A stretch of DNA of 64,000 nucleotides from Minisyncoccota bacterium (GTDB lineage: Bacteria > Patescibacteriota > Minisyncoccia > Phycocordibacterales > WO2-35-19). Positions 11,196 to 43,969 of this stretch are shown here, one piece after another. The DNA lies in the NCBI GenBank assembly GCA_036517255.1, contig DATDXE010000015.1, positions 14,568 to 78,567 of the forward strand, in the 5' to 3' direction. The notes beneath the pieces are model-generated. The model saw nothing but the letters and a program-made list of their open reading frames with translations. It searched no databases and was not told where the DNA came from. A program made the position numbers and the translations under genes. Every line of letters starts with the position of its first letter. Position 1 is the stretch's first letter.

Positions 11196-12530
11196 ATGAG
11201 GTACAAAACATTCCTAATACCAGCTTTCATTGCCTTCCTCCTCGCCAGCTTTTATATAGTAAAAAGTCCTGGAGTAATAGAAAGTGACGCCAAAGAGTAC
11301 GATGATTTGGCCATTTCCATTTTAGATGGCAAATTTGAACTAGCTGGCGAGGTCAGTATGGAAAGAGAACCGGCCTACCCCCTTTTCCGCGCTATCCTAA
11401 AAATTATAAAAGATAGTCCAGGTTTTATACTCTGGGTCCAAGCTATCATATATTTCTTCAGCATCTTTTTAATCGGCCTGACTATGAGCAAAATTGATCC
11501 TGAAAAGGGACACTTCGCTGCCTGGGGAGCAGCTCTCGCTTACGGACTAGCCTTCTACCCTTCGGTTCACATTTCTGAAACATTAGTCGCTTTCCTCCTC
11601 GCGCTCATAGGTTATAACCTTATGGAGGGGATAGAAAAACATTCTTGGGTCTATTTCGTAAATATAGCTATATTTTCTTCTTTCTTACTCCTCACTCGTT
11701 ACACATATATCCTAGTGCCTATCGCAGCATTTTTTATTTTATTGAAATACACCAAAGAGAAACTAAAAGTTTATATGGGTTTTCTGATAATTTTATGCCT
11801 TGTTACTCCTTGGGTGGTGAGAAATTATAAACAGTTTGGTGAATTTAATATGGCCGGTCGCTCTGGCGGCATACTTTATGCAAGAGCTTTGAGAGCTGAC
11901 GCTTCCTGGCGAAGCTTAGGCGATAGTTACCTCTCTGCTTTAGTAGGTCGGGGTATATTATTTACAATCTATCCGAATAATCAATCCATCTGGCTTGAAC
12001 AGTGGGGAGATTGGTGGAGAGACAAAGAAACCATAAGAGAAATGTGGGGTGAAGGCCGTATTGAAATAGATAGGAATAGAAAAGAGGCCGCTTTCGATAT
12101 TATTTTTAAAGATTTTAATACTTTTGCAAAGTTTGTAGCTTGGACTGGAGTCGACGAATTACGCTTGCTCCAATTACCAAACCCCATCTTTCAAGCAGGA
12201 GGTTCACCTATCGAAGGTACTTATGGGGTCGAGGCTCAAAATACCAACCTCTCTGGTTTAAAATTGGGAGCTCTCGGTATCACTCATCTAATCCAATTAA
12301 TTTGGTTTATAGTCGTTATATTTAGTACATGGATTGGATTTAAAAAATACGGACTGAAATTCCTACCAGGAATTTTCCTGATTTGTGTACTCCTACCTCA
12401 CAGTATCGCCGACAATATCGCTAGGTACGGAGCTCCATTGCAACCATGGCTCCTTTCTGGTATTTTTATGACGCTTTTATACCCACTAAAAACACATGTC
12501 TTTAAGCGTCATAATACCAGCCTTCAATGA
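11196..12530 (+). CDS. Polytopic membrane protein, GT-C-like (ArnT/PMT-type) glycosyltransferase candidate
   Basis: Ten or more predicted TM helices. An acidic motif (ESDAKEYDD) sits in the first extracytoplasmic loop. It is adjacent to a polyprenyl-P sugar synthase gene. Confidence 0.4.
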   Translation: MRYKTFLIPAFIAFLLASFYIVKSPGVIESDAKEYDDLAISILDGKFELAGEVSMEREPAYPLFRAILKIIKDSPGFILWVQAIIYFFSIFLIGLTMSKIDPEKGHFAAWGAALAYGLAFYPSVHISETLVAFLLALIGYNLMEGIEKHSWVYFVNIAIFSSFLLLTRYTYILVPIAAFFILLKYTKEKLKVYMGFLIILCLVTPWVVRNYKQFGEFNMAGRSGGILYARALRADASWRSLGDSYLSALVGRGILFTIYPNNQSIWLEQWGDWWRDKETIREMWGEGRIEIDRNRKEAAFDIIFKDFNTFAKFVAWTGVDELRLLQLPNPIFQAGGSPIEGTYGVEAQNTNLSGLKLGALGITHLIQLIWFIVVIFSTWIGFKKYGLKFLPGIFLICVLLPHSIADNIARYGAPLQPWLLSGIFMTLLYPLKTHVFKRHNTSLQ

Positions 12531-13365
12531 AGAGAACGCTATCGCCGATACTATTAAGCGTATCCAAAATCTAGGAAGGAAAGAAAATAGAGAAATAGAA
12601 ATCATAGTGGTTAACGATGGTAGTAGCGACACAACAGCGGAAATCGCTAGAAGCTCTGGGGCTAAAGTGATAGATCACCCAGAAAATGGGGGCTATGGCC
12701 TCTCAATTCAACATGGCATAGAAGTTGCTTCTCACTCCCTCATAGGCATTACCGATGCAGATGGCACCTACCCAATAGAAGAATTCCCCAAGTTAATTCA
12801 AATGGTCGAGGTGCAAGGCTTCGATATGGCAGTAGGAGCAAGGACAGGGAGTGAACACAAAAAAGGGTTATTTAAATATCCGGCCAGGATAATGTTTCGC
12901 CTCCTTGCCGAATATGTTTCCGGTCGACGAATTCCAGATATAAATTCCGGGCTTCGAGTGATGAAGAAGGATAAACTTTTGATGCATTACGAAAGAACTT
13001 GTCTTGGTTTTTCCTTCACTACCTCTATCACCCTCATTTTTATGCTCAAGGGATATTTCGTGGGCTATACTCCGATTCCATATGCTAAAAGAGTAGGTAA
13101 CTCGAAAATCCGTCACTTCAGGGACACATTACGCACTGCTCAAATCATGATCTCTGTCATTGCACACCACAATCCCCTGAAACTTTTTTTGCTTCTCTCC
13201 ATGATGAGCACTCTATTTTCCTTGGTATGTTTTGCCATTGGCACCACAACCACATTTTATTTGTTTTCAGTGATCGGCTCTGTCCTCATCGGCGGCGTGC
13301 CCATCATCCTCGCCCTCGGCTGCCTTGCCGAACTCTTTCGCCTTAGTAGCGACAAAGGTATCTAA
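12496..13365 (+). CDS. GT2 polyprenyl-phosphate sugar synthase (DPM1/ArnC/GtrB-like) with C-terminal TM helices
   Basis: LSVIIPAFNEE...IIVVNDGSSDTT...ITDADGTYP; two C-terminal TM segments. Confidence 0.65.
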   Translation: MSLSVIIPAFNEENAIADTIKRIQNLGRKENREIEIIVVNDGSSDTTAEIARSSGAKVIDHPENGGYGLSIQHGIEVASHSLIGITDADGTYPIEEFPKLIQMVEVQGFDMAVGARTGSEHKKGLFKYPARIMFRLLAEYVSGRRIPDINSGLRVMKKDKLLMHYERTCLGFSFTTSITLIFMLKGYFVGYTPIPYAKRVGNSKIRHFRDTLRTAQIMISVIAHHNPLKLFLLLSMMSTLFSLVCFAIGTTTTFYLFSVIGSVLIGGVPIILALGCLAELFRLSSDKGI

Positions 13366-16099: not shown

Positions 16100-16128
16100 T
16101 TGCAAAATAAGCTGTATTATGCTATAAT
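16100..16128 (+). promoter_or_regulatory. Near-consensus sigma70 promoter (TTGCAA-17-TGcTATAAT)
   Basis: It shares the 13-mer TATGCTATAATAA with the promoter at 8834-8862. The SD AAGGAG lies at 16172-16177. Confidence 0.5.
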
Positions 16129-16188
16129 AATGACTAGATTCTTAAAAATTCGTCCCAATACTGGGACAATACACAAGGAGAAGTATCC

Positions 16189-16593
16189 ATGGAAAATAAA
16201 GACCCGTATATGAACCGGCTAAAGTTGATAGGACCCCGAAAGGTAAAGAGGGGGGACAGGCTCATCGTCCAGACGAGGGGGGGAGGTAGTTTCAGTGGTG
16301 AACGGATCATCACGCTCCTCAAGAACCAAGAGCGGCGAGTCTACCCTCGCATCGGAACAGTGATCAGCTTTGCTGGTCCTGTAGAAGTGATCGGCTCGCG
16401 CGGCAGTGCTGCCGGCGGGGCAAGATCGCCTGGCGGCGTCATCGATGAAAGAATCGCGCGTATCACTAGCCGACAGGTACCTGACAACCCTAAGGAGTCA
16501 GCCCCTTGCCTGGAATTTCTGGGAAGTGGGCTGACACTGTTTCTCCACTTCATCCATCCGGGACAAGTAGCCCGCGTGTTGAAGGCTTCCTAG
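16189..16593 (+). CDS. GC-rich small hypothetical protein (134 aa), Gly/Arg/Ser-rich
   Basis: The ORF spans exactly the GC-rich block. It has an SD, GC-rich wobble positions, and a hairpin terminator downstream. Confidence 0.45.
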   Translation: MENKDPYMNRLKLIGPRKVKRGDRLIVQTRGGGSFSGERIITLLKNQERRVYPRIGTVISFAGPVEVIGSRGSAAGGARSPGGVIDERIARITSRQVPDNPKESAPCLEFLGSGLTLFLHFIHPGQVARVLKAS

Positions 16594-16613
16594 AGCCTCG
16601 CAGTTCCCTCCCC

Positions 16614-16652
16614 GGCCGTGCACACTTCGTGGTGCACGGCCATTTGTTTTGG
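16614..16652 (+). terminator. Intrinsic terminator (10-bp GC palindrome GGCCGTGCAC/GTGCACGGCC plus T-tract)
   Basis: Seen directly in sequence. The loop contains CTTCG. Confidence 0.5.
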
Positions 16653-29736: not shown

Positions 29737-29794
29737 CTCCGCTTCTTGGTAAATTCCTTCTGGGAAATACAAGAAGCGGAGCGTTTGTTTATTT
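29737..29794 (+). terminator. Intrinsic terminator (12-bp stem CTCCGCTTCTTG/CAAGAAGCGGAG plus T-tract)
   Basis: Seen directly in sequence. Confidence 0.5.
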
Positions 29795-30052
29795 AATATT
29801 TTTATTAAAATACTCCTTCAGCATCATCTTTAAAGACGATTTTCCTTTATCTGTTTTGAAATATTTTTCCCTTCTTTTAGCGTCAGTTATATTTTTGTAA
29901 GCCTCGTAAAAAATTAGATCAAGAGGTCTTCGTGGCTTAGTAGAAGGAACCTCTCCTTTTTCATGTTCTTCAAATCTTCTTTTCAAATTCTCTGAATAGC
30001 CTATGTATAACTTTTTATCTTTTAGACTTCGTAAAATATAGACGTAGTACAT
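29789..30052 (-). CDS. GIY-YIG nuclease family protein (YhbQ/UPF0213-like)
   Basis: YYVYILRS...LYIGYSENLKRRFEEH matches the GIY-YIG motif; about 88 aa. Confidence 0.6.
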   Translation of the reverse strand: MYYVYILRSLKDKKLYIGYSENLKRRFEEHEKGEVPSTKPRRPLDLIFYEAYKNITDAKRREKYFKTDKGKSSLKMMLKEYFNKNIK

Positions 30053-30137
30053 GTGGTGCACATGCACCATGTGAGGTGCATGGCTACCATAAACCTACTT
30101 CGGTTTTCTGGCAAAGCCATAAACCCTACGTGGTTTA

Positions 30138-30213
30138 TGGTGCGCGCACTAGGATTTGAACCTAGGACCTTTCCAGTATCAGTGGAATGCTCTACCAACT
30201 GAGCTATACGCGC
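30138..30213 (-). tRNA. tRNA-Ile (anticodon GAU)
   Basis: 76-nt cloverleaf folded by hand. Acceptor GCGCGUA/UGCGCGC, D-arm GCUC/GAGC, anticodon stem UUCCA/UGGAA with loop CUGAUAC, T-arm CUAGG-UUCAAAU-CCUAG. The 3' CCA is encoded. Confidence 0.85.
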
Positions 30214-30413
30214 GAATTTTTCCCAAGAGCGAAGCGATTGGTTGAAAAATTCAGCGTCCAGTTGTATTCAACTGGGAAGAATTTTCCGCTTTTGGTGGGC
30301 TTAAAAAATCTAACATAAAATTTTATAAAAGTTAAATCCCGTGAGAGAGGCTTGTAAGCCTACATCTCACGGGACGAGTGTCATCCCTAATAACCCCCCA
30401 AGGATGGGCACTC

Positions 30414-30740
30414 TTATCGGATACTGCGTGCGGCAGGCTTCTTGCCCGCAAGAGCCCGGCTCACCGCAGCCATACTTCTGTCGAAATTGGGGGGCTTTGG
30501 AGCATACTCAAACGCTCCATAAACTGGCGGTTTCGCCCTGGGCGTCTTCATAGCCAGCTCGTACTTCTTAGCTGACCTGAAGTCAGCTTTGATAGTAGGC
30601 CCAGCGACAAAAGCAACCAAAGCAACCACAACCGCCAAAGTCCCTAACGAAACCAGGCCGCTCACGGTGGGCGTGGCATCAAACATAGCCACAACCAACA
30701 CAAGAAAAACCATAGCAAGAATTCTAAGAAATTTTCCCAT
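30414..30740 (-). CDS. GC-rich small membrane protein (108 aa, 2 TM, basic C-tail)
   Basis: GGAGG SD; two hydrophobic helices; foreign GC-rich codon usage. Confidence 0.4.
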   Translation of the reverse strand: MGKFLRILAMVFLVLVVAMFDATPTVSGLVSLGTLAVVVALVAFVAGPTIKADFRSAKKYELAMKTPRAKPPVYGAFEYAPKPPNFDRSMAAVSRALAGKKPAARSIR

Positions 30741-30764
30741 AGCGAGAAAATCCTCCTGCCCTGT

Positions 30765-30793
30765 ATTATATCATAATCTACTATTAAATGCAA
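30765..30793 (-). promoter_or_regulatory. Consensus-like sigma70 promoter TTGCAT-17-TATAAT (minus strand)
   Basis: Reverse complement of 30765-30793. Confidence 0.45.
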
Positions 30794-30810
30794 GTAAAAA
30801 TTTAGACAGC

Positions 30811-30839
30811 AAAAAAGCCCTTATTTTAAGGGCTTTTTT
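30811..30839. terminator. Bidirectional intrinsic terminator (AAAAAAGCCCTTA-TTT-TAAGGGCTTTTTT)
   Basis: A-tract/stem/T-tract symmetry. It ends the 16S transcript on the minus strand. Confidence 0.6.
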
Positions 30840-31188
30840 GCTCGCCGGTTGGCGAAATAATATTCTTTGTTTTGTTCCGTCCTACTATTTAGTTTTCTGC
30901 TGTCTTTCCAGCTGCCACCCGCCTGTAACGCTATGCTTAGCATTGCGGGCAGGTACCATTTTAAGTTGTGATCAAACTATTGCGCACTCGATCGAGTTGC
31001 ACAATATCGACTGTCATTCCTTTCCTCCGACATAAGTCAGAGAAGAGGAAATTTTCACCTTGAAATATTCCACGAGCAGCTTCCGCTACCCGTGCCTTGT
31101 TACGACTTACTCCCTGTCATTGAGCTTACCTTAGTCCCACTTGCGTGAGCCTTTGGGTACTCCCAACTCCCTTGAGTTGACGGGCGGA

Positions 31189-32075
31189 TTGTGATTTTCT
31201 CACATCCCCTGAAGTATTTAATATAAATACTTCACCATACTGCTTCCCATCATTTCACAGTTTTGGACGTAGCGAGCAGATTTCCTGCACTACGCGAGCC
31301 CGATAGTTTTCAAATTCATTTTTGCTTTTAGCTTCCTGATTCTCTCTAAACCATCTTTAGTAAGATGATCTTTTGATTGAACTAGTTTGGCTACTTTACA
31401 AAATAATTCAAAATTTTTCTGTTTAGAAAAACTCTGAAGAGGATATTGTTTGAAAAATGGGATCAATATTTTAAGAACATCTGAATATGAACTTATGCTG
31501 TATCTATAGCATTGAGCATGGTTAACTCTCTGCTCTTTTTGAAAATACACAGCTCCACATTTCAGAGTATTCTTAACTTTTTCCAGAAGGAATCTATCTT
31601 TCTCCTGCATTTTTATATGAAAATGCAATTGAACATTAAACCCCATTCTGTAGAGAGAAGATTTTCTTACATTTACGTAAAAACATCCTTCTCCATCCGT
31701 TAATCCTACAATATACTCATTTGAAACTATCGGTTTTGTCCTTTCCACACATATTTAATATTATTGTTTTAATTATAACATTAAGTTGACGCATGGTACT
31801 ACGACTCAGCTGACTCCCAGCACTAATTTAGTGCTGGGTCTCCCAGGGTCATTTATAACTCCTTTCCAAACATCCCAACGAAGATTTTTGTTCGTGCTTC
31901 CTTCAGACTCACCGCAGAAGTCGCACATCTCTTTTTTGATCGGGCTACCTTTCGCTACTAGGATCCTTCGGTCCTCACATTACTGTAGGGGACCTACCCG
32001 TTCGCTAAATTGCTTTCGCAACTATCAGACTTTAACTGATTGGATTTATAAACTGCCTGGCGCCTTTAATTTTGA
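31189..32075 (-). mobile_element. Intervening sequence / intron-like insertion in 16S near E. coli position about 1390-1400, carrying a homing endonuclease ORF
   Basis: The conserved TGTACACACCGCCCGT block is split: GTACAAG sits at 32076-32082 and GACGGGCGG at 31180-31188. Confidence 0.65.
31290..31748 (-). CDS. LAGLIDADG homing endonuclease (single-motif)
   Basis: IVGLTDGEGCF dodecapeptide motif; 152 aa; same orientation as the rRNA. Confidence 0.7.
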   Translation of the reverse strand: MERTKPIVSNEYIVGLTDGEGCFYVNVRKSSLYRMGFNVQLHFHIKMQEKDRFLLEKVKNTLKCGAVYFQKEQRVNHAQCYRYSISSYSDVLKILIPFFKQYPLQSFSKQKNFELFCKVAKLVQSKDHLTKDGLERIRKLKAKMNLKTIGLA

Positions 32076-32298
32076 GTACAAGACTTGAGAACGTATTCAC
32101 CGCGGTATAGCTGACCCGCGATTACTAGCGATTCCAACTTCATGGGGTCGAGTTTCAGCCCCCAATCCGAACTGGCGCCACTTTTCTTAGGATTAGCTCA
32201 GTCTTGCGACGTCGCGACCCGTTGTAGTGGCGATTGTATTATGCGTGTAGCCCAAGGCGTCAGAGGGACATGCTGACCTGGCGTCATCCTCGCTTCCT

Positions 32299-32441
32299 CC
32301 CAGCACGAAGTGAACGAAGTTCACTTCAAGTAAAAAGTTCATAAAGTTATAAAGTTTTTAAAGTAAGGAAAATTCTTACTTTATAACTTTACAAACTTTC
32401 AACTCCTTAACTCGAAGTGCGTTCACGCACTTTGTGCTGGG
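32299..32441 (-). other. 16S expansion segment of about 120 nt (V7 region), AT-rich nested palindrome
   Basis: The interval between the GGAGGAAG...GACGTC block and CATGCATCACCTG is about twice the canonical length. Outer stem CCCAGCACGAAGTG/CACTTTGTGCTGGG; inner AAGTTATAAAGT/ACTTTATAACTT. Confidence 0.5.
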
Positions 32442-33792
32442 CAGTCTCGGCTGACACTTGTAACAGCCAACGAGGGTTGCGTTCGTTACCCCACTTAAGG
32501 GAACAACTCAAATCACGAACTGACGACGGCCATGCATCACCTGTTCAAGTGTTCTTGCGAACGTTTACATTTCTGTATTCTTCACTTGAATTTCTAGCCT
32601 TGGTAAGGTTTTTCGTTTGTTGTCGAATTGAACCGCATAATCCACCGCTTGTGCAAGTCCCCGTCTATTCCTTTGAGTTTTAAGCTTGCGCTCGTACTAC
32701 CCAGGCGCCTCTCTTAACGCGTTAGCTTCGCCTCCCAGAGGGTCGATACTCCGGAAAGCTAGAGAGGAACGTTTAGGGCGTAGACTACGCGGGTATCTAA
32801 TCCGCTTCGCTACCTACGCTTTCGTGTTTCAGTGTCAGGAGTGCGCCAGTGAATTGCCTTCGCTTTTGGTGTTCCCCATGATATCAACGGATTTCACCCC
32901 TACTCCATGAGTTCCATTCACCCCTCGCATCCTCAAGCTCTGCCGTTTCTTTCGCATTTCTCCAATTAGGTCGGAGTCTTTAACGAAAGACTAACAGTGC
33001 CACCTACACACCCTTTACGCCCAGTGATTCCGGATAACGCTTGGGGCCTCTGTATTACCGCTCCTGCTGGCACAGAGTTTGGAGCCCCTTATTCATGAGG
33101 TACTATCGTCCCGAAGGATTTCTCCCTCATAAAAGACCTTTACGTCCCGAAGGACTTCATCAGTCACGCGGCGTCGCTCGATCAGGCTTTCGCCCATTGT
33201 CGAATATTCTCGGCTGCAGCCACCCGTAGGTGTATGGACCGTTTCTCAGTTCCATCGGTGGGGGTCAGCCTCTCAGCTCCCCTAAGCGTCATAGCCTTGG
33301 TAAGCCATTACCTTACCAACTAGCTGATACTCCGCAGGCTCTTCCTTAAGCGTCTTGCGACTTTACTCTTACGAGACTATTTGGGATTACCTCCTCTTTC
33401 GAGAAGCTATACCAAACTTAAGGGAAGATACCTACGTGTTACTACCTCGTCTGCCGGTACCTCGGTCTTGCGACCTCGGCCCCTTGACTTGCATGCCTTA
33501 TCCACGCCGCCAGCGTTCATCCTGAGCTAGGATCAAACTCTAAATATAATTAGACGGAACAAAACGAAGAATACTATATCCTGTCATTTCATATTTTCTA
33601 ATTTTTCAGTTTGATCTTCTAACTCAAAAAATCATTGTTTGTGTGTACTTATTTTATTACTCAAAGAAATATAGACTAGGACTTACATCTCAATCTTATA
33701 TATTTCTTATTTCAAGTATGAAAATGTCAAAGACCAATCAAAACTCCCCACGAAGGAGAGCAGGGTAAAGTATAAGGATAAAAATAGGCCTG

Positions 33793-34395
33793 TCAAATAG
33801 TGATTCCAGCCCTCCCTCTCGAGAGAGCCCTGTATACAAATATGGAAGAAAACGTGGTAACCGGCACCGATACGAGTAGGCCAATCCCTAATGCTAAGAA
33901 ACCTAGGAAGTTAAGTACCCCAACTACGATCCAAAACAAAAGAAGACTCCAGAAATTACCCTCGGTGATAGCCCAACTCTCTTTCATAGAAGCAATTATG
34001 CCCATATTTGTATCGACAAGGATAAGAGGAGCAAAAGAAAACCTTACAGCCCACAAAATACCCGGCAAGATAAGAAGTAAGAGGCCAACAAAAACTATGA
34101 CCGGAAAAAGAATAGAGATTCCTAGATATTTCCAAAATAAAGGATAGCTCCTGAAAATATCACTGAATTTAGGTTTGTCATTGTCAGTTATACGGAGAAA
34201 AATTTTGCTATAACCGATGCGTATCACGATTAAAAGTATCGCCGCTAAAATTCCGAAGAGTGATTTGAAAAGCCCTTTCCCTCCTCCAGAAACAGCTCCT
34301 ACTGCTAGCATAAGCAAAGTGGAGAGAACAGAAAGATGCATATTCTCTTTCATCCTTGCCCAACCATATTTGACAGACTCAGAAATCGAAAACAT
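33793..34395 (-). CDS. Polytopic membrane protein, unknown function
   Basis: About 200 aa with 5-6 TM helices. The likely start is the internal Met. Confidence 0.35.
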   Translation of the reverse strand: MFSISESVKYGWARMKENMHLSVLSTLLMLAVGAVSGGGKGLFKSLFGILAAILLIVIRIGYSKIFLRITDNDKPKFSDIFRSYPLFWKYLGISILFPVIVFVGLLLLILPGILWAVRFSFAPLILVDTNMGIIASMKESWAITEGNFWSLLLFWIVVGVLNFLGFLALGIGLLVSVPVTTFSSIFVYRALSRGRAGITI

Positions 34396-34402
34396 GAGTT
34401 TA

Positions 34403-35308
34403 TTATACTTTATTCCTCCACTTCTGAATAGTAACAAGTAATGGTGAACCGAAAAAGATGGATGAGTAGGTACCGGCGATGATACCGATGCCCATAGTAA
34501 GAGCAAAATGCTTGGTAGCTTCAGGTCCAAAGAAATAGAGAACAACAATAGCAAGAAGGGTGGTAACGGAGGTATTTATAGAGCGAGTGAATGTTTCCGA
34601 AATACTTCTGCCTACAATTGCTTCAAACTCTTCCTTACCTCCCCTATCATTACTTATTTTCAAATTTTCCCTAACCCGATCAAATACTACGATAGTATCG
34701 TGAATAGAAAAGCCTAGGATAACAAGAAGGGCTGTCACGAAAAGAGTATCGACTTCGAACCCTTGAAAGTGGCCTAAAATGGCGAATATCCCTGTAGGAA
34801 TAATGACATCGTGAGCGAGAGCGACTAGTGCCACTCCTCCATAAACCCAAGAGCTGATCGGTTTGGAAACCTTCCTGAAGGCAAAAGTGATAAATAAGAT
34901 AATAGCCACTAAAACCAATATGATGGATAGGTAAGATTTGTTGATAGCTTCTATACCGAGAACTGGCCCGACCGTATTAAATTCTTTCTCGATAGGCACA
35001 TACTTACCTTCAATGCTAAGAAGTGCCATGACACCAGCTTTTCTGGACTGATCGATTTCCTTTGTTCTGATGATAAAGGAGTCATCACCAGCATTCCTCA
35101 CAGAAATACCTCCAAGGTCAAGTACAGAAAGGGCATCATTCACTTCTCCCACAGTGGGGGTGGCTCCTTCGTAAGAAACGTTGAGCAAACTACCACCAGT
35201 AAAATCAATACCGGGCTTTAATCCATAAGCTGAAATAGCCCAAATTGAAATAGCGAAAAGTAAGGCCGAGAAACAATAAAATATTTTTCTATATTTGATG
35301 ATTTTCAT
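34403..35308 (-). CDS. secF: Protein translocase subunit SecF
   Basis: SecD/F family TM architecture. Its ATGA overlaps the secD stop. Confidence 0.7.
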   Translation of the reverse strand: MKIIKYRKIFYCFSALLFAISIWAISAYGLKPGIDFTGGSLLNVSYEGATPTVGEVNDALSVLDLGGISVRNAGDDSFIIRTKEIDQSRKAGVMALLSIEGKYVPIEKEFNTVGPVLGIEAINKSYLSIILVLVAIILFITFAFRKVSKPISSWVYGGVALVALAHDVIIPTGIFAILGHFQGFEVDTLFVTALLVILGFSIHDTIVVFDRVRENLKISNDRGGKEEFEAIVGRSISETFTRSINTSVTTLLAIVVLYFFGPEATKHFALTMGIGIIAGTYSSIFFGSPLLVTIQKWRNKV

Positions 35309-35309
35309 A

Positions 35310-36581
35310 TTATTTTTTATCTGATTGCATGGCGAACAATATGGTGCGTGAAGCTGTAATAGCGGAGAACATAGAAACAAGGACGCCTATGAGAAATACT
35401 AAAGCAAAGCCTTTCACGACTGGCGTAGAGGCTAGGTAGAAAAGAATAAGAGCCGTTATTATACTCGAAAGATTCGAATCACGAATCGATGTCCAAGCTC
35501 TTTTAAAACCTTCACTCAAGGCATCAACTTTATTTTTACCTTTTTTAAACTCCTCTTTTGTTCTTTCAAATATTAGAATATTGGCATCGACCGCCATTCC
35601 GATTGATAATATAAAGCCAGCAATACCGGCAGCAGTCAAAGTAACCGACATCAATTTGAACAAGGCCAGGTTGATAACGGTATAGATAATGAGAGCAACG
35701 ACAGACACAAGTCCCGGACCTCTATACCAACCTATGAGGAAAATGGCGATAATAATAAAGGAATACAGTCCGGCCTTTAAGCTGTCAGCCACGGCTTGCT
35801 GACCCAAAGTAGCTCCTATTGACTGAGTACTTATAAGTTCGACAGGCACAGGTAATGCACCGTAGTTCAAATCACGCACTACCTGTTTCGCTTCCTCAGC
35901 AGTAAAGTCACCAGTTATCACTGCTTCGCCTGAAGGTATTTCTTCACGGATATAAGGGGCTTGAATCAACAGCCCATCCAGGAAAATGCCCATGATGCGA
36001 CCAATATTATTTTTTGTTATTTCTGCAAAAAGATTTTTACCTTCAGTATTAAATTGTAAGCCAATAATCGGTTGGGTTGGAAAATTTGGATCAAACTGAA
36101 TGGTGGCTTTCTGCAATTTACCACCATCGAGACCTGTAGCGATGAAAACATCCTCAGGGACTACGCCATCACCTACCGAAGACAGATCAAAATCAGGCTT
36201 CATGAGCATAAACTCCAGTGTGGGAGTTTTGCCGATTTGGTCTATAGCTTCTTGCACATTAGTAACCCCGGGCAATTCAACAATAAGCCTATTCTGCCCC
36301 TCTCCCCCAATGCCACTAGTTTCTACTTGTACTAGAGGCTCTGACACGCCAAAAAGGTTCACCCTTCTCTCAATAGCATTCCTTAGAGCTTCCATAGAAT
36401 CATCGATTTCACCGGAAGCAACTTTAGAAGTATCAGCTCGATATATAAGCTGTGTCCCTCCGGACAAATCTAGCCCAAGTTTAAATTTATTTTCACCAGT
36501 CTTCTCGCCATTCCAAATCCAAAGCCCCATGACGATCGAAGCGAAAATTATGAGTATTGCCCAAAATCTGTATTTAGCCAT
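35310..36581 (-). CDS. secD: Protein translocase subunit SecD
   Basis: LDLSGGTQL...; GLDLKGG-like motifs; C-terminal 6 TM helices. Confidence 0.7.
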   Translation of the reverse strand: MAKYRFWAILIIFASIVMGLWIWNGEKTGENKFKLGLDLSGGTQLIYRADTSKVASGEIDDSMEALRNAIERRVNLFGVSEPLVQVETSGIGGEGQNRLIVELPGVTNVQEAIDQIGKTPTLEFMLMKPDFDLSSVGDGVVPEDVFIATGLDGGKLQKATIQFDPNFPTQPIIGLQFNTEGKNLFAEITKNNIGRIMGIFLDGLLIQAPYIREEIPSGEAVITGDFTAEEAKQVVRDLNYGALPVPVELISTQSIGATLGQQAVADSLKAGLYSFIIIAIFLIGWYRGPGLVSVVALIIYTVINLALFKLMSVTLTAAGIAGFILSIGMAVDANILIFERTKEEFKKGKNKVDALSEGFKRAWTSIRDSNLSSIITALILFYLASTPVVKGFALVFLIGVLVSMFSAITASRTILFAMQSDKK

Positions 36582-36591
36582 TTATTTATAT

Positions 36592-37950
36592 TTAGACTCC
36601 ACTTCTGGATAGTATCACTTTTAGAGTCTTTAGTGCAATTTTGAGGTCGAGCATGAGGGAACGGTTTTTGATGTAATAGAGGTCGTAGGAAAGCTTGCGA
36701 CGAGTCTTAAAAGCGTCGGCAACAACCTTGGGCGGATCGCGATGATATAGCTGAGCCCAACCGGAAAGGCCTGGTTTTATAAGATGACGAACATTGTAGT
36801 AAGGGATTTCATTTTCGTAATTTCTAACTAGAGATACTATCTCGGCTCTCGGACCAATAACTGACATGTCACCTTTTAAAACATTCCAAAATTGAGGCCA
36901 TTCGTCAATTCTAACTGATCTGATAAATTTACCGACTTTGGTGATATGCTGGGCTTCATTCCGCGCCTCGCTACGCACCTCGCTTGCGAGACGGGCGGGC
37001 GACATACTTCTAAATTTCCAGATTTTTATTACCTTATTATTTTTGCCTATCATTTCTTGGGTGAAGAAAATTTTACCTCCATCCTCGATCTTGATCGCAA
37101 GGCCAACCACTATACAGAAAACGATGTTCAGAGAACCGACAATAATACTTATAATTATATCCATAATCCTCTTCAGGGCATCGTAAGCCACATGTGAAGA
37201 AGTGGAAACATTTTCTAAAAACCAATTGTATTTCAGAAGCGAGAGGGGCACTCGATCAAAAATATCTTCATAAATTTTATACATATCGATAAACTTCACA
37301 TCAGCAAAAATTAAATTATATAGATTCGGAAGTATCGGTTCCACCTTTTCATTATGTAGGTCAATAGCGATGATCTGCACCCCTTCGGAATAAACCCGAG
37401 ATATTATTTCGTCTTTGAAATTAAGTGACTCTATTTCGCTCACATCAATCGATGATATGAACTCCAAACCGTAGCGAGGATTGTTATTTACTTCCTCAAT
37501 CAACTCCCTCATTTCTTCCCCCTGACCTACGATGATTCCTTTCTGAACTGTAGCTGGCCTCAAAAGACGCACCCCATAAAGCCTCCAAGCCAGGATAAGA
37601 GCGAAGGAGATAAGGAGGTGTATAAAGAGGATGGTTTTGGGTGCAATTTTGAAATAAGGTATGGAATAAAAGAAAAGAACAGCAAGGAAAGTATTACTAA
37701 TTTGAGCATTGAAAATGGTGCTCGGTAAACGTGTTTTGAGGAGAAGTGTATGCTTTTCATATAAGCCAGTAATGAAGAAGGTTACTATCCATACAGCAGA
37801 AAGGATGGAAAAAGGGAAAGCATGCTGAACAAAGGCTTCCCCAGCAGGAAAAGTGAAATACCTAAAAGCCAAGGCTAAATACAAGGAAAAATAGAAAATG
37901 ACGATATCGCCCAAAAAAAGAAGTAAAGCCTCTTTTCTATTTTGAAACAT
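36592..37950 (-). CDS. Exopolysaccharide-type polyprenyl glycosylphosphotransferase (Bac_transf/WbaP-EpsL family)
   Basis: C-terminal KRIMDIIISII...KFRSM...DEWPQFWNVLKGDMSVIGPR is the sugar-transferase signature. N-terminal TM helices. Confidence 0.65.
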   Translation of the reverse strand: MFQNRKEALLLFLGDIVIFYFSLYLALAFRYFTFPAGEAFVQHAFPFSILSAVWIVTFFITGLYEKHTLLLKTRLPSTIFNAQISNTFLAVLFFYSIPYFKIAPKTILFIHLLISFALILAWRLYGVRLLRPATVQKGIIVGQGEEMRELIEEVNNNPRYGLEFISSIDVSEIESLNFKDEIISRVYSEGVQIIAIDLHNEKVEPILPNLYNLIFADVKFIDMYKIYEDIFDRVPLSLLKYNWFLENVSTSSHVAYDALKRIMDIIISIIVGSLNIVFCIVVGLAIKIEDGGKIFFTQEMIGKNNKVIKIWKFRSMSPARLASEVRSEARNEAQHITKVGKFIRSVRIDEWPQFWNVLKGDMSVIGPRAEIVSLVRNYENEIPYYNVRHLIKPGLSGWAQLYHRDPPKVVADAFKTRRKLSYDLYYIKNRSLMLDLKIALKTLKVILSRSGV

Positions 37951-37998
37951 ATATATATTATAACTCCAACTAATTTTTTCTCCTCCTACTCTTCCCTT

Positions 37999-38559
37999 CT
38001 ATTTTTTAAATGGGAAACCAACTGATTTTAAGAAAGCTAAAGTTTTTTCTTTGGAGTTAAGATTGGTGACGATAGTCACTGCAAAACCAAATACATCTTT
38101 CAGCTCTTCATCAGCAGTTTCAGGAAATACCACATGTTCTTTTATGCCTAAAGTATAGTTGCCCATCTCATCGACTCCACCATCCGACAAGCCACGAAAA
38201 TCTTTGGTCCTAGGTAGAGCTATATTTATAAGTTTATCCAGGAAACTCCACATCCTTTCTCCTCGAAGAGTGATTTGGATTCCTACTGTATCCCCCTCAC
38301 GCACCTTGAAAGAAGCCACTGATTGCTTGGCCCCTTTCTTAACCGGACGCTGTCCTGTGATTTTTGAAAGCCTATCAAAAGCTAATTCAATTTTCTTTTT
38401 ATCGGAAAAAGAACCTACTCCAGCATTAATCACCGCTTTCTCTATTCTAGGAGCTTGCATAACATTAACCATCTTAAGTGGTTCTTTGAGTTCCTTGAAC
38501 GAATTTTTTGTTTTTTCTTTAAGAGTTTTCATAATTTTTCCATCTTTACTTCTTTCCAT
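37999..38559 (-). CDS. rplE: 50S ribosomal protein L5
   Basis: NVMQAPRIEKAVINAGVG. Confidence 0.8.
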   Translation of the reverse strand: MERSKDGKIMKTLKEKTKNSFKELKEPLKMVNVMQAPRIEKAVINAGVGSFSDKKKIELAFDRLSKITGQRPVKKGAKQSVASFKVREGDTVGIQITLRGERMWSFLDKLINIALPRTKDFRGLSDGGVDEMGNYTLGIKEHVVFPETADEELKDVFGFAVTIVTNLNSKEKTLAFLKSVGFPFKK

Positions 38560-41151: not shown

Positions 41152-41493
41152 CTATTTTTTAGTTTCAGTGGTTGATTTAGCGGCTTGAGCGGCGGAAATT
41201 TCAGCTTCCTTCTTTTTAGCTTCGAGTTCTTTCTGCATTTTACCTCCATGCCTTACGAATTTGCGAGTAGGAGAAAATTCACCCAAACGATGACCTACCA
41301 TATCTTCAGAAATCAAAACTTCTACGTGAACCTTGCCATTGTGAACACCGAAAATGAAACCTACCATTTCAGGAGCGATGACGCAGGCTCGCGACCATGT
41401 TTTAATAACCCCAGTTTCTACAGGTTTCTTGCCCTCGATCTTTTTCAAGACTCGAGGATCAACATATGGGCCTTTTTTCAGTGATCGCGACAT
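41152..41493 (-). CDS. rpsS: 30S ribosomal protein S19 (with K/A/E-rich C-terminal extension)
   Basis: [11 protein letters not shown]... Confidence 0.85.
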
Positions 41494-41588
41494 ACAAAAA
41501 ACGCGTGAGCGTTGTTTGGGATATTAACATAAGGTTTTGACACACGCAAACCTTAAATAGGGCAAGATGACTCTTTTTAGATTAGGGC

Positions 41589-41616
41589 TTGACATTTAGT
41601 TAAATATGAGTAGGGT
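41589..41616 (+). promoter_or_regulatory. Conserved promoter-like element TTGACA-16-TAGGGT (copy 1 of 3)
   Basis: TTGACA 41589-41594; TAGGGT 41611-41616. The shared block TATGAGTAGGGT also occurs in copy 2. Confidence 0.4.
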
Positions 41617-41672
41617 GAGCACCAGAGCCCGTCTCAATAGAAGAGGCGGGACGATCGAAGGAGAGAAAGAAA

Positions 41673-42254
41673 ATGAAAAATACGCGCTGGGCCATTCTGG
41701 CCCTGATTGCGCTGATTTCGCTCACGGTTTCGCCCGTGAGCGCCCTGCCGGTACTTAGTGTGGAGGTCGGCTTCAGCAACCTGCCGCTCGAAGGAGTTGT
41801 GGCGCCGGTGTCACCGGGAGCAACGGGCATCGATTTTTCGAGCCTGATGCAGTCGGCGCCGGGATGCGCCGGGGCCAACATGGCCCTATGCGGCATGGGA
41901 TCGGTCGTTTTCTCAAGCACCGACTTCGACAGTGGCGTCGCGTTCAGCATGATTCTGGGGCCAAGCCTCACGTATACCACAAGCGGACCGTGGAGCGCGG
42001 CCGGCGGACCGGGAGGAAGCTTCAGCATTAGCACGCTCGGGACATACACCGCTGCAGGGTATGACCCCACGGCCGGAAGCATGAACCTGACGTTTCAACC
42101 CCCGCCAGTAGCAGGCAACTATTCGTTTTCGGCAAGCGGCGCCACATCGCCGGTGCCCGAACCGAGTTCAATCATCTTGATGAGCGGCGGCCTCATCGGC
42201 TTCTACTTCATCAACCGGCGTCACCAGTTCCGGCAACACCAGCGGAAAACCTAG
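41673..42254 (+). CDS. Secreted PEP-CTERM domain protein 1 (GC-rich)
   Basis: Sec signal MKNTRWAILALIALISLTVSPVSA. C-terminus PVPEPSSIILMSGGLIGFYFINRRHQ has the PEP motif, a TM helix and an Arg cluster. A GGAG SD is present. Confidence 0.7.
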   Translation: MKNTRWAILALIALISLTVSPVSALPVLSVEVGFSNLPLEGVVAPVSPGATGIDFSSLMQSAPGCAGANMALCGMGSVVFSSTDFDSGVAFSMILGPSLTYTTSGPWSAAGGPGGSFSISTLGTYTAAGYDPTAGSMNLTFQPPPVAGNYSFSASGATSPVPEPSSIILMSGGLIGFYFINRRHQFRQHQRKT

Positions 42255-42283
42255 CGACTTGCGGCAACGCCGGTCGCACAACC

Positions 42284-42318
42284 ATCGGCCCCGAGCAATC
42301 GGGGCTGATTTCTTTTAT
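42284..42318 (+). terminator. Hairpin (GNRA loop GCAA) plus T-tract; near-identical to the one after the second PEP-CTERM gene
   Basis: GCCCCGA-GCAA-TCGGGGC, then TGATTTCTTTT. Confidence 0.5.
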
Positions 42319-42341
42319 AAAAATAAAACTGTTTATAACGT

Positions 42342-42369
42342 TTGACATTGAAGCAAATGTGAGTAGGGT
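42342..42369 (+). promoter_or_regulatory. Conserved promoter-like element TTGACA-16-TAGGGT (copy 2)
   Basis: TTGACATT...TGTGAGTAGGGTAAG. Confidence 0.4.
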
Positions 42370-42432
42370 AAGTTTCAGAGTCGGGCCAATTTATAGGATC
42401 CGACCAAGAACCAAGCAAGGAGAGAGTTAACG

Positions 42433-43077
42433 ATGAAGAAAAATGTTTGTTGGGCCATTCTGGCCCTGATTGCGCTGATCACGCTCACGGTTTCGCCCGT
42501 GAGCGCAACAACGGTGATCGATTTCACCAGCCCAATTTACTCCGGAGCCACCGGAAACACGACCTTCGCCGTCGTCGATCAGGGGATTTTCAACAACCTG
42601 ACGGCAAGCGGCGGGGTCCTGAACTGGACACCCGGGGGCGGACTCGGAATCAACGGGCCAACTTCGCTCGACGATCCGAGCGAAATCGGACTCCTGGAAG
42701 TGCTGGGAGATGGATTGGTTCCACCGCTCATGACCCTTTATGACATCTACCTAGGGGACATCTACACCAGCGAATTTCTGACCGGCACCGAGCAGGCGCA
42801 GTATCGCATCAACGGTGGGGCGTGGATTACCGTGAGCGCAGTCACTCCCACTTCCGGGTCGGGCCTGCTCACGATTTCAGTGAACTTGGACAACGTCTCC
42901 CAGATCGACTTCCGGGCGACGAAGTTGGGTTCCGACTTCAGCGTCCGCGGCTACAGCGCCGAAGTCGTGCCCGAGATGAGTACCATCTTCCTTTCGGGAA
43001 CTGGTCTACTCGGCCTGGGATTGTGGGCTCAGATCAACATCCGGCGCAGGCGGCAACGGGAACAGCAGAAAACCTGA
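42433..43077 (+). CDS. Secreted PEP-CTERM domain protein 2 (GC-rich)
   Basis: Signal MKKNVCWAILALIALITLTVSPVSA is nearly identical to that of protein 1. C-terminus VVPEMSTIFLSGTGLLGLGLWAQINIRRRRQ. Confidence 0.7.
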   Translation: MKKNVCWAILALIALITLTVSPVSATTVIDFTSPIYSGATGNTTFAVVDQGIFNNLTASGGVLNWTPGGGLGINGPTSLDDPSEIGLLEVLGDGLVPPLMTLYDIYLGDIYTSEFLTGTEQAQYRINGGAWITVSAVTPTSGSGLLTISVNLDNVSQIDFRATKLGSDFSVRGYSAEVVPEMSTIFLSGTGLLGLGLWAQINIRRRRQREQQKT

Positions 43078-43107
43078 ACCTTTGCGGCTTGCAAATGCCG
43101 CACAACC

Positions 43108-43141
43108 ATCAGCCCCGAGAAATCGGGGCTGATTTATTTTT
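43108..43141 (+). terminator. Hairpin (GAAA tetraloop) plus T-tract
   Basis: GCCCCGA-GAAA-TCGGGGC, then TGATTTATTTT. Confidence 0.5.
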
Positions 43142-43164
43142 AATCCGCCAGCTGGCGGAACCCC

Positions 43165-43193
43165 TTTACATTTTAAAAAGTTTATGCTAGGGT
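43165..43193 (+). promoter_or_regulatory. Conserved promoter-like element TTTACA-17-TAGGGT (copy 3)
   Basis: TTTACATT...TTATGCTAGGGTCACC. Confidence 0.35.
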
Positions 43194-43239
43194 CACCTCG
43201 GCCATGAAGTTTGTGGTACTTTGAGAATGAGGTAAAGAA

Positions 43240-43893
43240 ATGCTACATCGGAGGCTGTGCCTAGTTGTTTTGATTTTCACTTTACTGGCTGCAGCGGCGA
43301 CTGCAGGACCAATGGTCTATTTCGAAAAGGAAGAGTGGAAGGAAGCGCTAGGGAACAACGCCTCCTATGTGAGCGATAGCCTCAAGGGCGGCCCAAGCGA
43401 GATCTTCGATCTCGAGAGCGGCTGGGAGCTCTCCGGCTATAAGGAGAACGGTTTTTACGACCAGGTGTCGATCAAGAAAGACAACGAGAGTAGCTACTCG
43501 TTGCTCTCCGGAGCTCCTATGTACGCCTGGGGAGCGAATTTCGACACGGCGCCCATGGATCAGGGCAACGGCTTCTGCTTTTCCTTCCAGTACGTCGGAG
43601 GAAGCAGTGATTCGGCCGAATGCTTCAACCGCGATCCCTTTATCCAAGGGTTCGTCGGATTCGTGTTCAGTACCGGAGTCGAGAGCATCGTGCTCCAGAC
43701 TAGTACTGGACCTCACTCCCCGCTCCAGGAAACGTACCTGGTATGGGATATGATCGCAGTGACGAGCATGGGAGGTGGAGGAGGAGGCCCCGGCCCACCA
43801 TCTCCAAGCGAGGTACCGGAACCAGGAAGTCTCGGCCTAATCGGCCTGGGACTGGTTTATTTCGGAATCATGACCCGTCGGAGACAGGAATAA
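43240..43893 (+). CDS. Secreted PEP-CTERM domain protein 3 (GC-rich; Gly/Pro linker)
   Basis: Signal peptide; GGGGGGPGPPSPSE linker; C-terminus VPEPGSLGLIGLGLVYFGIMTRRRQE. Confidence 0.7.
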   Translation: MLHRRLCLVVLIFTLLAAAATAGPMVYFEKEEWKEALGNNASYVSDSLKGGPSEIFDLESGWELSGYKENGFYDQVSIKKDNESSYSLLSGAPMYAWGANFDTAPMDQGNGFCFSFQYVGGSSDSAECFNRDPFIQGFVGFVFSTGVESIVLQTSTGPHSPLQETYLVWDMIAVTSMGGGGGGPGPPSPSEVPEPGSLGLIGLGLVYFGIMTRRRQE

Positions 43894-43918
43894 CGAGTAC
43901 CTTGCGGCAACGCCGCGA

Positions 43919-43955
43919 CGGCCCCCCACCAGTTTGGTAGGGGGCCGTTATATAT
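43919..43955. terminator. Strong GC hairpin between convergent PEP-CTERM gene 3 and rplB
   Basis: CGGCCCCCCACC-AGTTT-GGTAGGGGGCCG. A/T-rich on the plus side. Confidence 0.5.
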
Positions 43956-43969
43956 TATGATTTTATTAT

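Follow-up and report, generated by a model that had tools for sequence, protein, structure and literature searches.

A GC-rich island of three PEP-CTERM-type genes between rplB and rpsS in a candidate phyla radiation bacterium

Three tandem genes for PEP-CTERM-type proteins

The 64-kb stretch of DNA analyzed here (part of contig DATDXE010000015.1, hereafter called the window) comes from a bacterium of the candidate phyla radiation (CPR) and carries a GC-rich island in which three consecutive genes encode predicted secreted proteins with PEP-CTERM-type sorting tags. An initial annotation, made from the sequence alone, had placed three tandem open reading frames (ORFs) within positions 41580-43960 and had judged the host to be CPR-like. 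Both points have held up. The ORF listing gives the three genes at these positions on the + strand, and the proteins encoded in this region (HEY4516128.1-HEY4516131.1) are named 'Candidatus Paceibacterota bacterium' at NCBI. Among GTDB species representatives, the closest matches to the ribosomal protein L2 of this organism come from Zambryskiibacteriota (73%), Paceibacterota, Taylorbacteria, and Kaiserbacteria.

In the first protein, P1 (41673-42254, +; 193 amino acids [aa]; NCBI HEY4516128.1), a signal peptide precedes a small beta-barrel domain, which is followed by the PEP-CTERM tail VPEPSSIILMSGGLIGFYFINRRHQFRQHQRKT. P2 (42433-43077, +; 214 aa; HEY4516129.1, annotated as 'hypothetical protein') is likewise predicted to be secreted and ends in the tail variant VPEMSTIFLSGTGLLGLGLWAQINIRRRRQREQQKT. 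P3 (43240-43893, +; 217 aa; HEY4516130.1) has a signal peptide, a domain not assigned to any family, a Gly/Pro linker, and the canonical tail VPEPGSLGLIGLGLVYFGIMTRRRQE. The NCBI model of P3 is called from Met25, and the signal peptide is thereby lost from that gene model. Judged by eye from their n-, h-, and c-regions, the predicted signal peptides are MKNTRWAILALIALISLTVSPVSA for P1, MKKNVCWAILALIALITLTVSPVSA for P2, and MLHRRLCLVVLIFTLLAAAATA for P3, with cleavage after VSA, VSA, and ATA and immediately before the residues LP, TT, and GP, respectively. The signal peptide of P2 is nearly equal to that of P1, and an N-terminal helix is present in the AlphaFold2 models of both proteins. The P1 model is of high confidence (pLDDT 91.6) and includes a helix at residues 164-192, but the single-sequence model of P2 is otherwise unusable (pLDDT 43).

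All three C-terminal tails are tripartite, running VPEP...RR in P1, VPEM...RRRR in P2, and VPEP...RRR in P3. The earlier claim of an unmistakable PEP-CTERM tag in every copy is accurate for P1 and P3, which score above the cut-offs of both TIGR02595 (26.5 and 24.1, respectively; cut-off 16) and PF07589 (24.1 and 24.7; cut-off 20.7), and both had already been labelled PEP-CTERM proteins by the NCBI pipeline. It overstates the case for P2, which is listed by neither model, even though its motif, transmembrane (TM) helix, and RRRR cluster retain the expected architecture. Beyond the basic cluster, moreover, the tails of P1 and P2 are unusually long compared to the consensus of the protein family to which P1 belongs. 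The PEM motif of P2 and these long extensions are consistent with a relaxed constraint on the tag. P1 and P3 are members, and P2 a near-member, of the known PEP-CTERM class.

The tails are not a chance occurrence, as judged from 1,440 stop-to-stop ORFs that were scanned for the combination of motif, TM helix, and basic tail. The ORFs were drawn from the window, from other assemblies of the locus, from 20 loci of CPR relatives, and from three non-CPR contigs (L095, L096, and L098). In the window and the CPR sequences, P1, P2, and P3 were the sole ORFs flagged. The other six flagged ORFs all reside on the three non-CPR contigs, as expected.

Architecture of the cassettes

Each gene forms a self-contained cassette. 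A promoter, a 5′ untranslated region (UTR), and a Shine-Dalgarno site precede the coding sequence, which specifies a Sec signal peptide, a small secreted domain, and a PEP-CTERM-type tail, and a terminator follows it. The predicted promoters are sigma-70-like and have in common the unusual -10 box TAGGGT. In cassette 1, the promoter read from the sequence (41589..41616, +) consists of TTGACA (41589-41594), a 16-nt spacer, and TAGGGT (41611-41616), and the alignment of the repeat shared by the first two cassettes reveals its conservation with the promoter of cassette 2 (42342..42369, +; TTGACA at 42342-42347, a 16-nt spacer, and TAGGGT at 42364-42369). The cassette 3 promoter, also read from the sequence (43165..43193, +), has TTTACA (43165-43170), a 17-nt spacer, and TAGGGT (43188-43193). 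A purine-rich Shine-Dalgarno site precedes each of the three genes. In cassette 1, this site (GGAGAG) follows an 8-bp hairpin in the 5′ UTR (41628..41650, +) with a folding energy of -16.4 kcal/mol (z = -2.8), but folding of the 5′ UTRs of cassettes 2 and 3 is not better than that of shuffled sequences (z = -1.3 and -0.2).

Downstream of P1, a small post-stop hairpin motif, CTTGCGGCAACGCCG, is followed by an intrinsic terminator with an 11-bp stem and a T-run (42284..42309, +). The strong terminator of cassette 2, also with an 11-bp stem (43108..43133, +), is 93% identical to that of cassette 1. For P3, the terminator is a GC-rich hairpin formed by an inverted repeat (43918..43948) that lies between the convergent P3 and rplB genes and constitutes the right edge of the island. 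Searches of the island and of the corresponding spacers of relatives with Rfam, at both gathering and E-value thresholds, returned only terminator-like noise and no riboswitch or other noncoding RNA.

The initial annotation had described the arrangement as cassette-like, with a conserved frame around unrelated domains. For cassettes 1 and 2 this description is apt: their DNA is 84% identical in the signal peptide, 90-93% in the terminator, 76-77% in the promoter, and 73% in the tail, and only about 63%, which is the background level, in the mature parts. It does not extend to cassette 3, which has in common with the others only the promoter hexamers and the post-stop CTTGCGGCAACGCCG motif. The further statement that the mature domains differ wholly between copies also holds, although the P1 domain is no orphan, having about 100 representative relatives. 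PEP-CTERM regions are reported to be far more alike within than between species (Haft 2006, PMC1569441). Because the cassettes share a frame and because of this within-species likeness, the three genes are probably paralogs from a single donor genome. As a separate observation, a palindrome of 9 bp that is nearly perfect, CGCTCACGG TTTCG CCCGTGAGCG, lies within the signal-peptide DNA shared by P1 and P2 (41716-41742 and 42482-42508).

Foreign composition and reproducible junctions

The contrast between GC-rich genes and AT-rich flanks that had been noticed earlier is borne out by measurement. The island (41589-43948) has a GC content of 0.562, compared with 0.398 for the remainder of the window. 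Segments as long as the island but outside it vary with a standard deviation of 0.023 and reach a maximum of 0.457, in the segment with the 16S gene, and the island lies about 7 standard deviations above the other segments. GC content at third codon positions (GC3) is 0.64-0.73 in the island genes versus 0.24-0.46 in host genes (0.70 versus 0.35 overall). Codon choice is almost reversed, with CTG used at 0.38 versus 0.07 and ATA at 0.00 versus 0.34 in island and host genes, respectively. The segment displays hallmarks of a horizontally acquired genomic island, in that its composition and codons are deviant, its relatives are found in other phyla, and it is absent at this site in related genomes.

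The same junctions are present in JGI assembly 3300002502, in Logan assembly SRR2090153, in an NCBI metagenome-assembled genome, and in five ENA assemblies (ERZ27254767, ERZ4903055, ERZ4903072, ERZ27254763, and ERZ27254836). These assemblies were produced by different pipelines (JGI, ENA/MEGAHIT, Logan, and NCBI) from several samples, and misassembly, which the initial annotation had proposed to check, is very unlikely on this account. One of the matching scaffolds is part of the Rifle aquifer data set, and one contig with a variant L2 gene likewise carries the island. Identity to the window is 99.87% or higher in every assembly and 99.99-100% in most, which indicates that the assemblies represent one population.

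The island lies within the S10 ribosomal-protein cluster

The initial annotation did not mention the genomic context of the island, which is a junction between two ribosomal protein genes. Few bacterial gene orders are as conserved as that of the S10 cluster. On the - strand of the window, the order reads S10-L3-L4-L23-L2, then the island, then S19-L22-S3-L16-L29-S17-L14-L24-L5, with the island genes on the opposite strand. The left bound is rpsS for ribosomal protein S19 (41152..41493, -; PF00203), and the right bound is rplB for ribosomal protein L2 (43970..44824, -; HEY4516131.1). The island exactly fills the interval from the rplB end to the rpsS promoter, such that its first promoter is back-to-back with the rpsS promoter and P3 is convergent with rplB. 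If the island is subtracted, about 95 + 20 nt of host spacer are left, which is near the length of the 'empty' spacers of two relatives, L014 and L026 (145 and 180 nt), if slightly less.

The host DNA at the left junction includes the rpsS promoter, as read from the sequence (41500..41549 region, -; -35 box TTGCGT at 41544-41549 and -10 box TAATAT at 41521-41526), and a folded leader hairpin with a U-run (41500-41513, -). A promoter, hairpin, and U-run likewise lie upstream of rpsS in most relatives, among them L014, L018, L021, L023, L027, L028, and L030. Because rpsS has its own promoter and leader, the genes from rpsS to rplE form a separate transcription unit in this clade. The spacer thus separates two independent transcription units, which explains how an insertion into the conserved cluster is tolerated.

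The equivalent spacer differs in length between close relatives and other bacteria. In 14 loci of Paceibacteria closely related to the host (those whose L2 shares at least 58% identity), the rplB-rpsS spacer is 145-4880 nt long (median 836), and in two more loci of this group, where S19 was not found within 5 kb, it exceeds 5 kb. At 60 loci of other bacteria, including three more distant CPR genomes, the range is 3-198 nt (median 38). The contents of the long spacers, whose GC content is close to that of the flanks, are diverse. They include a 1439-aa Big_7 and peptidoglycan-binding protein, a 1007-aa PKD/CARDB protein beside an IS200-like transposase, orotidine monophosphate decarboxylase, phosphoribosyltransferase, dihydroorotate dehydrogenase, SAICAR synthetase, diacylglycerol kinase (in two relatives), a DNA methylase, and several orphan ORFs. 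Examples among loci L013-L031 are the spacers at L016 5165-10045, L029 5840-9889, L021 5843-9385, and L022 from 5849 onward. The rplB-rpsS junction is thus a variable-cargo site across a sub-clade of Paceibacteria, and in 18 relatives it holds no PEP-CTERM gene.

Two features of the cluster are of separate interest. The conserved rpsS leader (window 41494-41549, -), when listed across relatives, also takes in L025 and L029. It consists of a sigma-70-like promoter (TTGACT/TTGACA-17-TAGTAT/TAATAT), a hairpin of the approximate form GAGCUC-loop-GAGCU, and a U-run whose last base lies 2-10 nt upstream of the rpsS start codon. The leader matches no Rfam family, and its possible roles are autoregulation by a ribosomal protein or attenuation. 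There is also a second break in the usual gene order, as the S10 cluster ends after rplE (L5, 37999-38559). In this part of the window (33793-38559, -), rplE is followed by genes for a glycosylphosphotransferase, secD, secF, and a DUF975-like membrane protein rather than by those for S14, S8, and L6.

The P1 family and potential donors

An exhaustive HMMER search with P1 returned 101 representative homologs, of which 22 have E-values of 1e-10 or lower. These homologs are co-linear with P1, are 170-200 aa in length, and are at best 52% identical to it. They define a family of PEP-CTERM proteins of about 185 aa that has no family name. Named members belong to Acidobacteriota (several), Korobacteraceae, Pseudomonadota, and Desulfatiglandales, with Acidobacteriota in the majority, and P1 is the only member named Paceibacterota. 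Conserved features of the family are a Cys pair, YTT..W, TPG.LNFSFQ, FSASG, and the tail VPEPGS.ALLGSGL.GLG..ARRR. P1 retains the conserved Cys pair, Trp107, and PEP. Against model NF038129, P1 scores 34.5 bits, below the 65-bit cut-off, and 27 of 29 family members match this model weakly (best E 6e-12). Word-indexed searches with P1 and P3 each returned only the protein's own cluster, and the sensitivity of this method is low, given that HMMER yielded 101 relatives of P1.

The genomic settings of three P1 homologs bear on the source of the island. Homolog P0015 is encoded on contig L098, which has a GC content of 0.605 and four PEP-CTERM genes, and homolog P0013 resides on a non-CPR contig with GGDEF/EAL genes. 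Homolog P0012 is 50% identical to P1 and has a canonical PEP-CTERM tail, and its gene (GC 0.61) has a GC3 of 0.73, like that of P1. This gene is located at 1188-1736 of a 4.4-kb contig (L096; JGI Ga0467018_0009346), where four of the six neighbors tested match phage families (RuvC-like resolvase, HNH endonuclease, phrog_11227, and phrog_1588). This context suggests that phages carry small PEP-CTERM proteins. P1, P2, and P3 themselves match no PHROG family. In a search for sister cassettes, a wobble-degenerate DNA pattern for the shared signal peptide (WAILALIALI) had no matches in genome contigs and only two in metagenome contigs, both in unrelated small phage-like ORFs, a search of low power given that the organism is apparently in neither collection.

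The donor was probably a higher-GC bacterium with a PEP-CTERM/exosortase system, for which our best guess is an Acidobacteriota-like organism, and a phage may have served as the vehicle.

Search for a sorting enzyme

The initial annotation saw no exosortase in the window, and this remains true when about 10 kb on each side are added (approximately 83 kb in all). No gene in this region has a precomputed Pfam match to PF09721, and the polytopic or family-less proteins encoded there match no exosortase model of NCBIfam or Pfam. Genes for PrsK, PrsR, PrsT, or EpsI-like proteins were not seen in the same region, where a TPR protein matches PrsT with a score of 31.7 versus a cut-off of 312. The gene at 36592-37950 had been assigned to an 'EpsL class' of glycosylphosphotransferases that accompanies exosortase systems, and this assignment proved to be incorrect. 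Its product passes only the generic exopolysaccharide (EPS) priming transferase model TIGR03025 (303.9 versus 295.55) and fails TIGR03013 (263.1 versus 393.35), which represents the subfamily of XrtA/PEP-CTERM systems. Therefore, this gene provides no evidence of an exosortase system. A glycosyltransferase family 4 (GT4) protein similarly fails TIGR03088.

The window and its left flank do constitute a very large glycan-biosynthesis region in which EPS-type genes are abundant, with more than 10 glycosyltransferases and methyltransferases, PMT_2 proteins, a Polysacc_synt flippase, a Wzy_C + TPR protein, and the TIGR03025 priming transferase. Two polytopic proteins are encoded about 0-5 kb to the left of the window, at L010 8260-9981 (573 aa, 11 predicted TM segments) and 11428-12972 (514 aa, 7 predicted TM segments). 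Neither has a Pfam or NCBIfam family even at E = 1, and their genes adjoin those for the flippase and the Wzy_C + TPR protein. We considered that a divergent exosortase might be found among such family-less polytopic proteins, but this candidacy was set aside when no family matches emerged from Pfam or NCBIfam. CPR bacteria are generally described as single-membraned cells that have no outer membrane, and the literature searched includes no paper that links PEP-CTERM proteins or exosortases with CPR bacteria or Patescibacteria.

Other features of the window

A second GC-rich segment (0.56), at 16100-16645 (+), lies amid glycosyltransferase genes but on the strand opposite to theirs. Its elements are a promoter (TTGCAA-17-TATAAT), a 134-aa orphan ORF (16189-16593), and a strong terminator hairpin. 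The ORF has no Pfam match, Rfam yields nothing for the segment, and the folding z-score is only -2.1. The segment may be another foreign single-gene cassette or a novel RNA.

No insertion interrupts the 16S rRNA gene (32034-33548, -). Its downstream neighbors in this region (29790-33548, -) are a free-standing LAGLIDADG ORF (31290-31748), a tRNA-Ile gene (30138-30213), and a GIY-YIG ORF. The window contains no 23S rRNA gene farther downstream, and the rRNA genes appear to be unlinked. Finally, a reverse transcriptase gene (RVT_1; L012 7278-8375) lies about 0.6-1.7 kb to the right of the window end, where it adjoins genes for family-less secreted proteins and type IV pilus genes. Diversity-generating retroelements are common in CPR bacteria, and this gene could be part of one.

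Interpretation

We consider it probable that the three self-contained cassettes arrived by a recent horizontal transfer from a diderm donor into this CPR population. Horizontal acquisition had been suggested in the initial annotation, and it is the best explanation of the composition and codon usage. A Paceibacteria (CPR) population in the Rifle aquifer would have acquired the 2.4-kb island, which would have entered the spacer bounded by the rplB end and the rpsS promoter and left ribosomal-protein expression undisturbed. If expressed from their own promoters, P1, P2, and P3 would most likely be exported through the Sec pathway, with signal peptidase I cutting after VSA or ATA. Where no matching exosortase acts on them, the C-terminal helix and Arg cluster would probably function as a stop-transfer anchor to yield type-I membrane proteins that display their small beta-rich domains at the surface of the CPR cell. 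Should another part of the genome encode an exosortase, P1, P2, and P3 would instead be cleaved at PEP and transferred onward. By loose analogy with the flocculation protein PepA, adhesion to the matrix of a partner organism is a plausible role. Transfers between phyla into Patescibacteria are documented but rare (PMC12455944).

Several observations weigh against this account of a recent transfer. Its recency is read from composition alone, and among the assemblies found, all from one population, there is no strain with an empty site. No near-identical donor sequence came to light, as the best P1 homolog is only 52% identical, P3 found no homolog in the word-indexed search, and P2 was not queried alone. 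In IMG/VR, the alignments of the three proteins and of the P1 family had no match, and neither did the terminator motif. Beside the island there is no integrase or transposase gene, no phage gene, and no att-like direct repeat, and terminal inverted repeats and a tRNA target are likewise missing. Lastly, the -10 box TAGGGT is atypical.

One alternative is that a complete PEP-CTERM/exosortase system works in the CPR host, with an exosortase, possibly a very divergent one, encoded elsewhere in the genome or in the glycan cluster. This enzyme would cleave the three proteins at PE(P/M) and join them to a glycan or lipid supplied by the glycosylation locus. The very large glycan-biosynthesis region would suit such a role, as would the two polytopic membrane proteins of L010 that match no family. 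Moreover, the three tagged genes are intact and each has a signal peptide, as expected of a working system, and exosortase and archaeosortase homologs are known to function in single-membrane cells (XrtG and ArtA). Nevertheless, we regard a working system as unlikely, since the surrounding 83 kb yielded no exosortase match and no PrsK, PrsR, PrsT, or EpsI-like genes, the priming transferase and GT4 protein fail the system-specific models, the PEM motif of P2 and the long P1 and P2 tails point to a tag under relaxed constraint, and the literature searched is silent on such a system in CPR bacteria. A bolder form of the idea, which we view as quite unlikely, is that the CPR bacterium, presumably single-membraned, uses a cryptic, highly divergent exosortase-like enzyme, perhaps one of those two polytopic proteins or the product of a gene elsewhere in the genome, to place PEP-CTERM proteins on its own surface glycan, where they would aid adhesion to a partner. 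Were this true, exosortase-type sorting would be extended to CPR bacteria, and the rplB-rpsS junction would become a lineage-specific 'cargo bay' for host-interaction genes.

At the other extreme, the island might be a decaying, unexpressed remnant of a transfer that is neutral and functionless in the CPR host. The wholly un-ameliorated composition, the atypical -10 boxes (TAGGGT), the degeneration of the P2 tag to a score under the model thresholds, and the acceptance of arbitrary cargo by this spacer in relatives all fit with such a remnant. However, none of the three ORFs is broken, and each retains its start codon, its Shine-Dalgarno site, its signal peptide, and its tail; P1 retains its Cys pair, Trp107, and PEP and is modeled with high confidence; and the island is present in every assembly of the population found, across several samples. 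CPR genomes are also streamlined and quick to lose useless DNA. In light of these facts, we judge a functionless remnant to be improbable. The sharp composition boundaries and the non-CPR relatives of the island genes could also be produced by a chimeric or contaminated assembly in which a GC-rich segment of another organism was joined to a CPR contig. Such an artifact would have to enter and leave the contig at one spot, however, because the flanking rplB and rpsS genes are consecutive, same-strand genes of one operon. The identical junctions from different pipelines and samples, and a leftover host spacer near the length of the empty spacers of L014 and L026, make this explanation very improbable.

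A further proposal, offered in the initial annotation, is that an episymbiont exports the tagged proteins for processing by the exosortase of its host bacterium. CPR bacteria are often episymbionts, and the diderm lineage from which the genes seem to derive could be such a host, but this support is circumstantial. According to the model of Haft (2006, PMC1569441), the exosortase has to encounter the tag, a helix embedded in the membrane, within one and the same membrane. No data point to processing by a host exosortase. We know of no mechanism by which the tag could be presented to the inner membrane of another cell, and we find this proposal scarcely credible.

Implications

A transfer as proposed above would represent a clean, well-bounded case in which genes of diderms, or of their phages, entered a streamlined CPR genome. 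The cargo consists of surface proteins, which is the class likeliest to matter for attachment to partner cells, and the Acidobacteriota relatives of the P1 family provide a testable hint at the organisms that live with this CPR population. The island also amounts to a natural experiment on a sorting tag in a cell that possibly has no matching enzyme. Its unusual aspects are the host phylum, the apparent want of a sorting enzyme nearby, and the location in a ribosomal-protein cluster. The clade-wide cargo site between rplB and rpsS, with its rpsS leader, is the more original by-product of this analysis. Binning and phylogenomic pipelines take these 16 ribosomal proteins as contiguous, and the break between rplB and rpsS bears on such work as well as on the regulation of ribosomal-protein operons in CPR bacteria.

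Comparison with known systems

The closest counterpart of the island is the PEP-CTERM/exosortase system (EpsH/Xrt; Haft 2006, PMC1569441), in which proteins likewise have a signal peptide, a variable mature domain, and a tail of PEP motif, TM helix, and basic cluster, and in which several paralogs have a common signal peptide and tail. That tag was found only in bacteria with an outer membrane (Haft 2006, PMC1569441). The present case differs in that the host is a CPR bacterium; that no exosortase, PrsK/R/T, or system-specific transferase is encoded in the 83 kb; and that there are three known tagged genes, all in one foreign island and one of them with a PEM tag.

At the level of individual proteins, the P1 family matches both NF038129 and the model for the Zoogloea flocculation protein PepA (NF033554) over the mature domain and tail. 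Those proteins (about 190 aa) have the same size and layout as P1, but the P1 family remains well below the cut-offs of both models.

With regard to gene organization, the cassettes resemble phage 'morons' and other single-gene cassettes, which also have their own promoter and intrinsic terminator for each gene and a composition unlike that of their surroundings, and P0012, a homolog of P1, is encoded on a phage-like contig. Unlike morons, the island adjoins no phage genes and has no relative in IMG/VR. The rplB-rpsS junction, in turn, is comparable to integration hotspots between core genes in that it carries different, unrelated cargo across members of the clade, in one relative including a transposase. 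It departs from such hotspots in lying within the otherwise nearly invariant S10 cluster and in having no tRNA, integrase, or att repeats. Overall, the PEP-CTERM island is best seen as an unusual but explainable gene transfer and not as a new kind of system.

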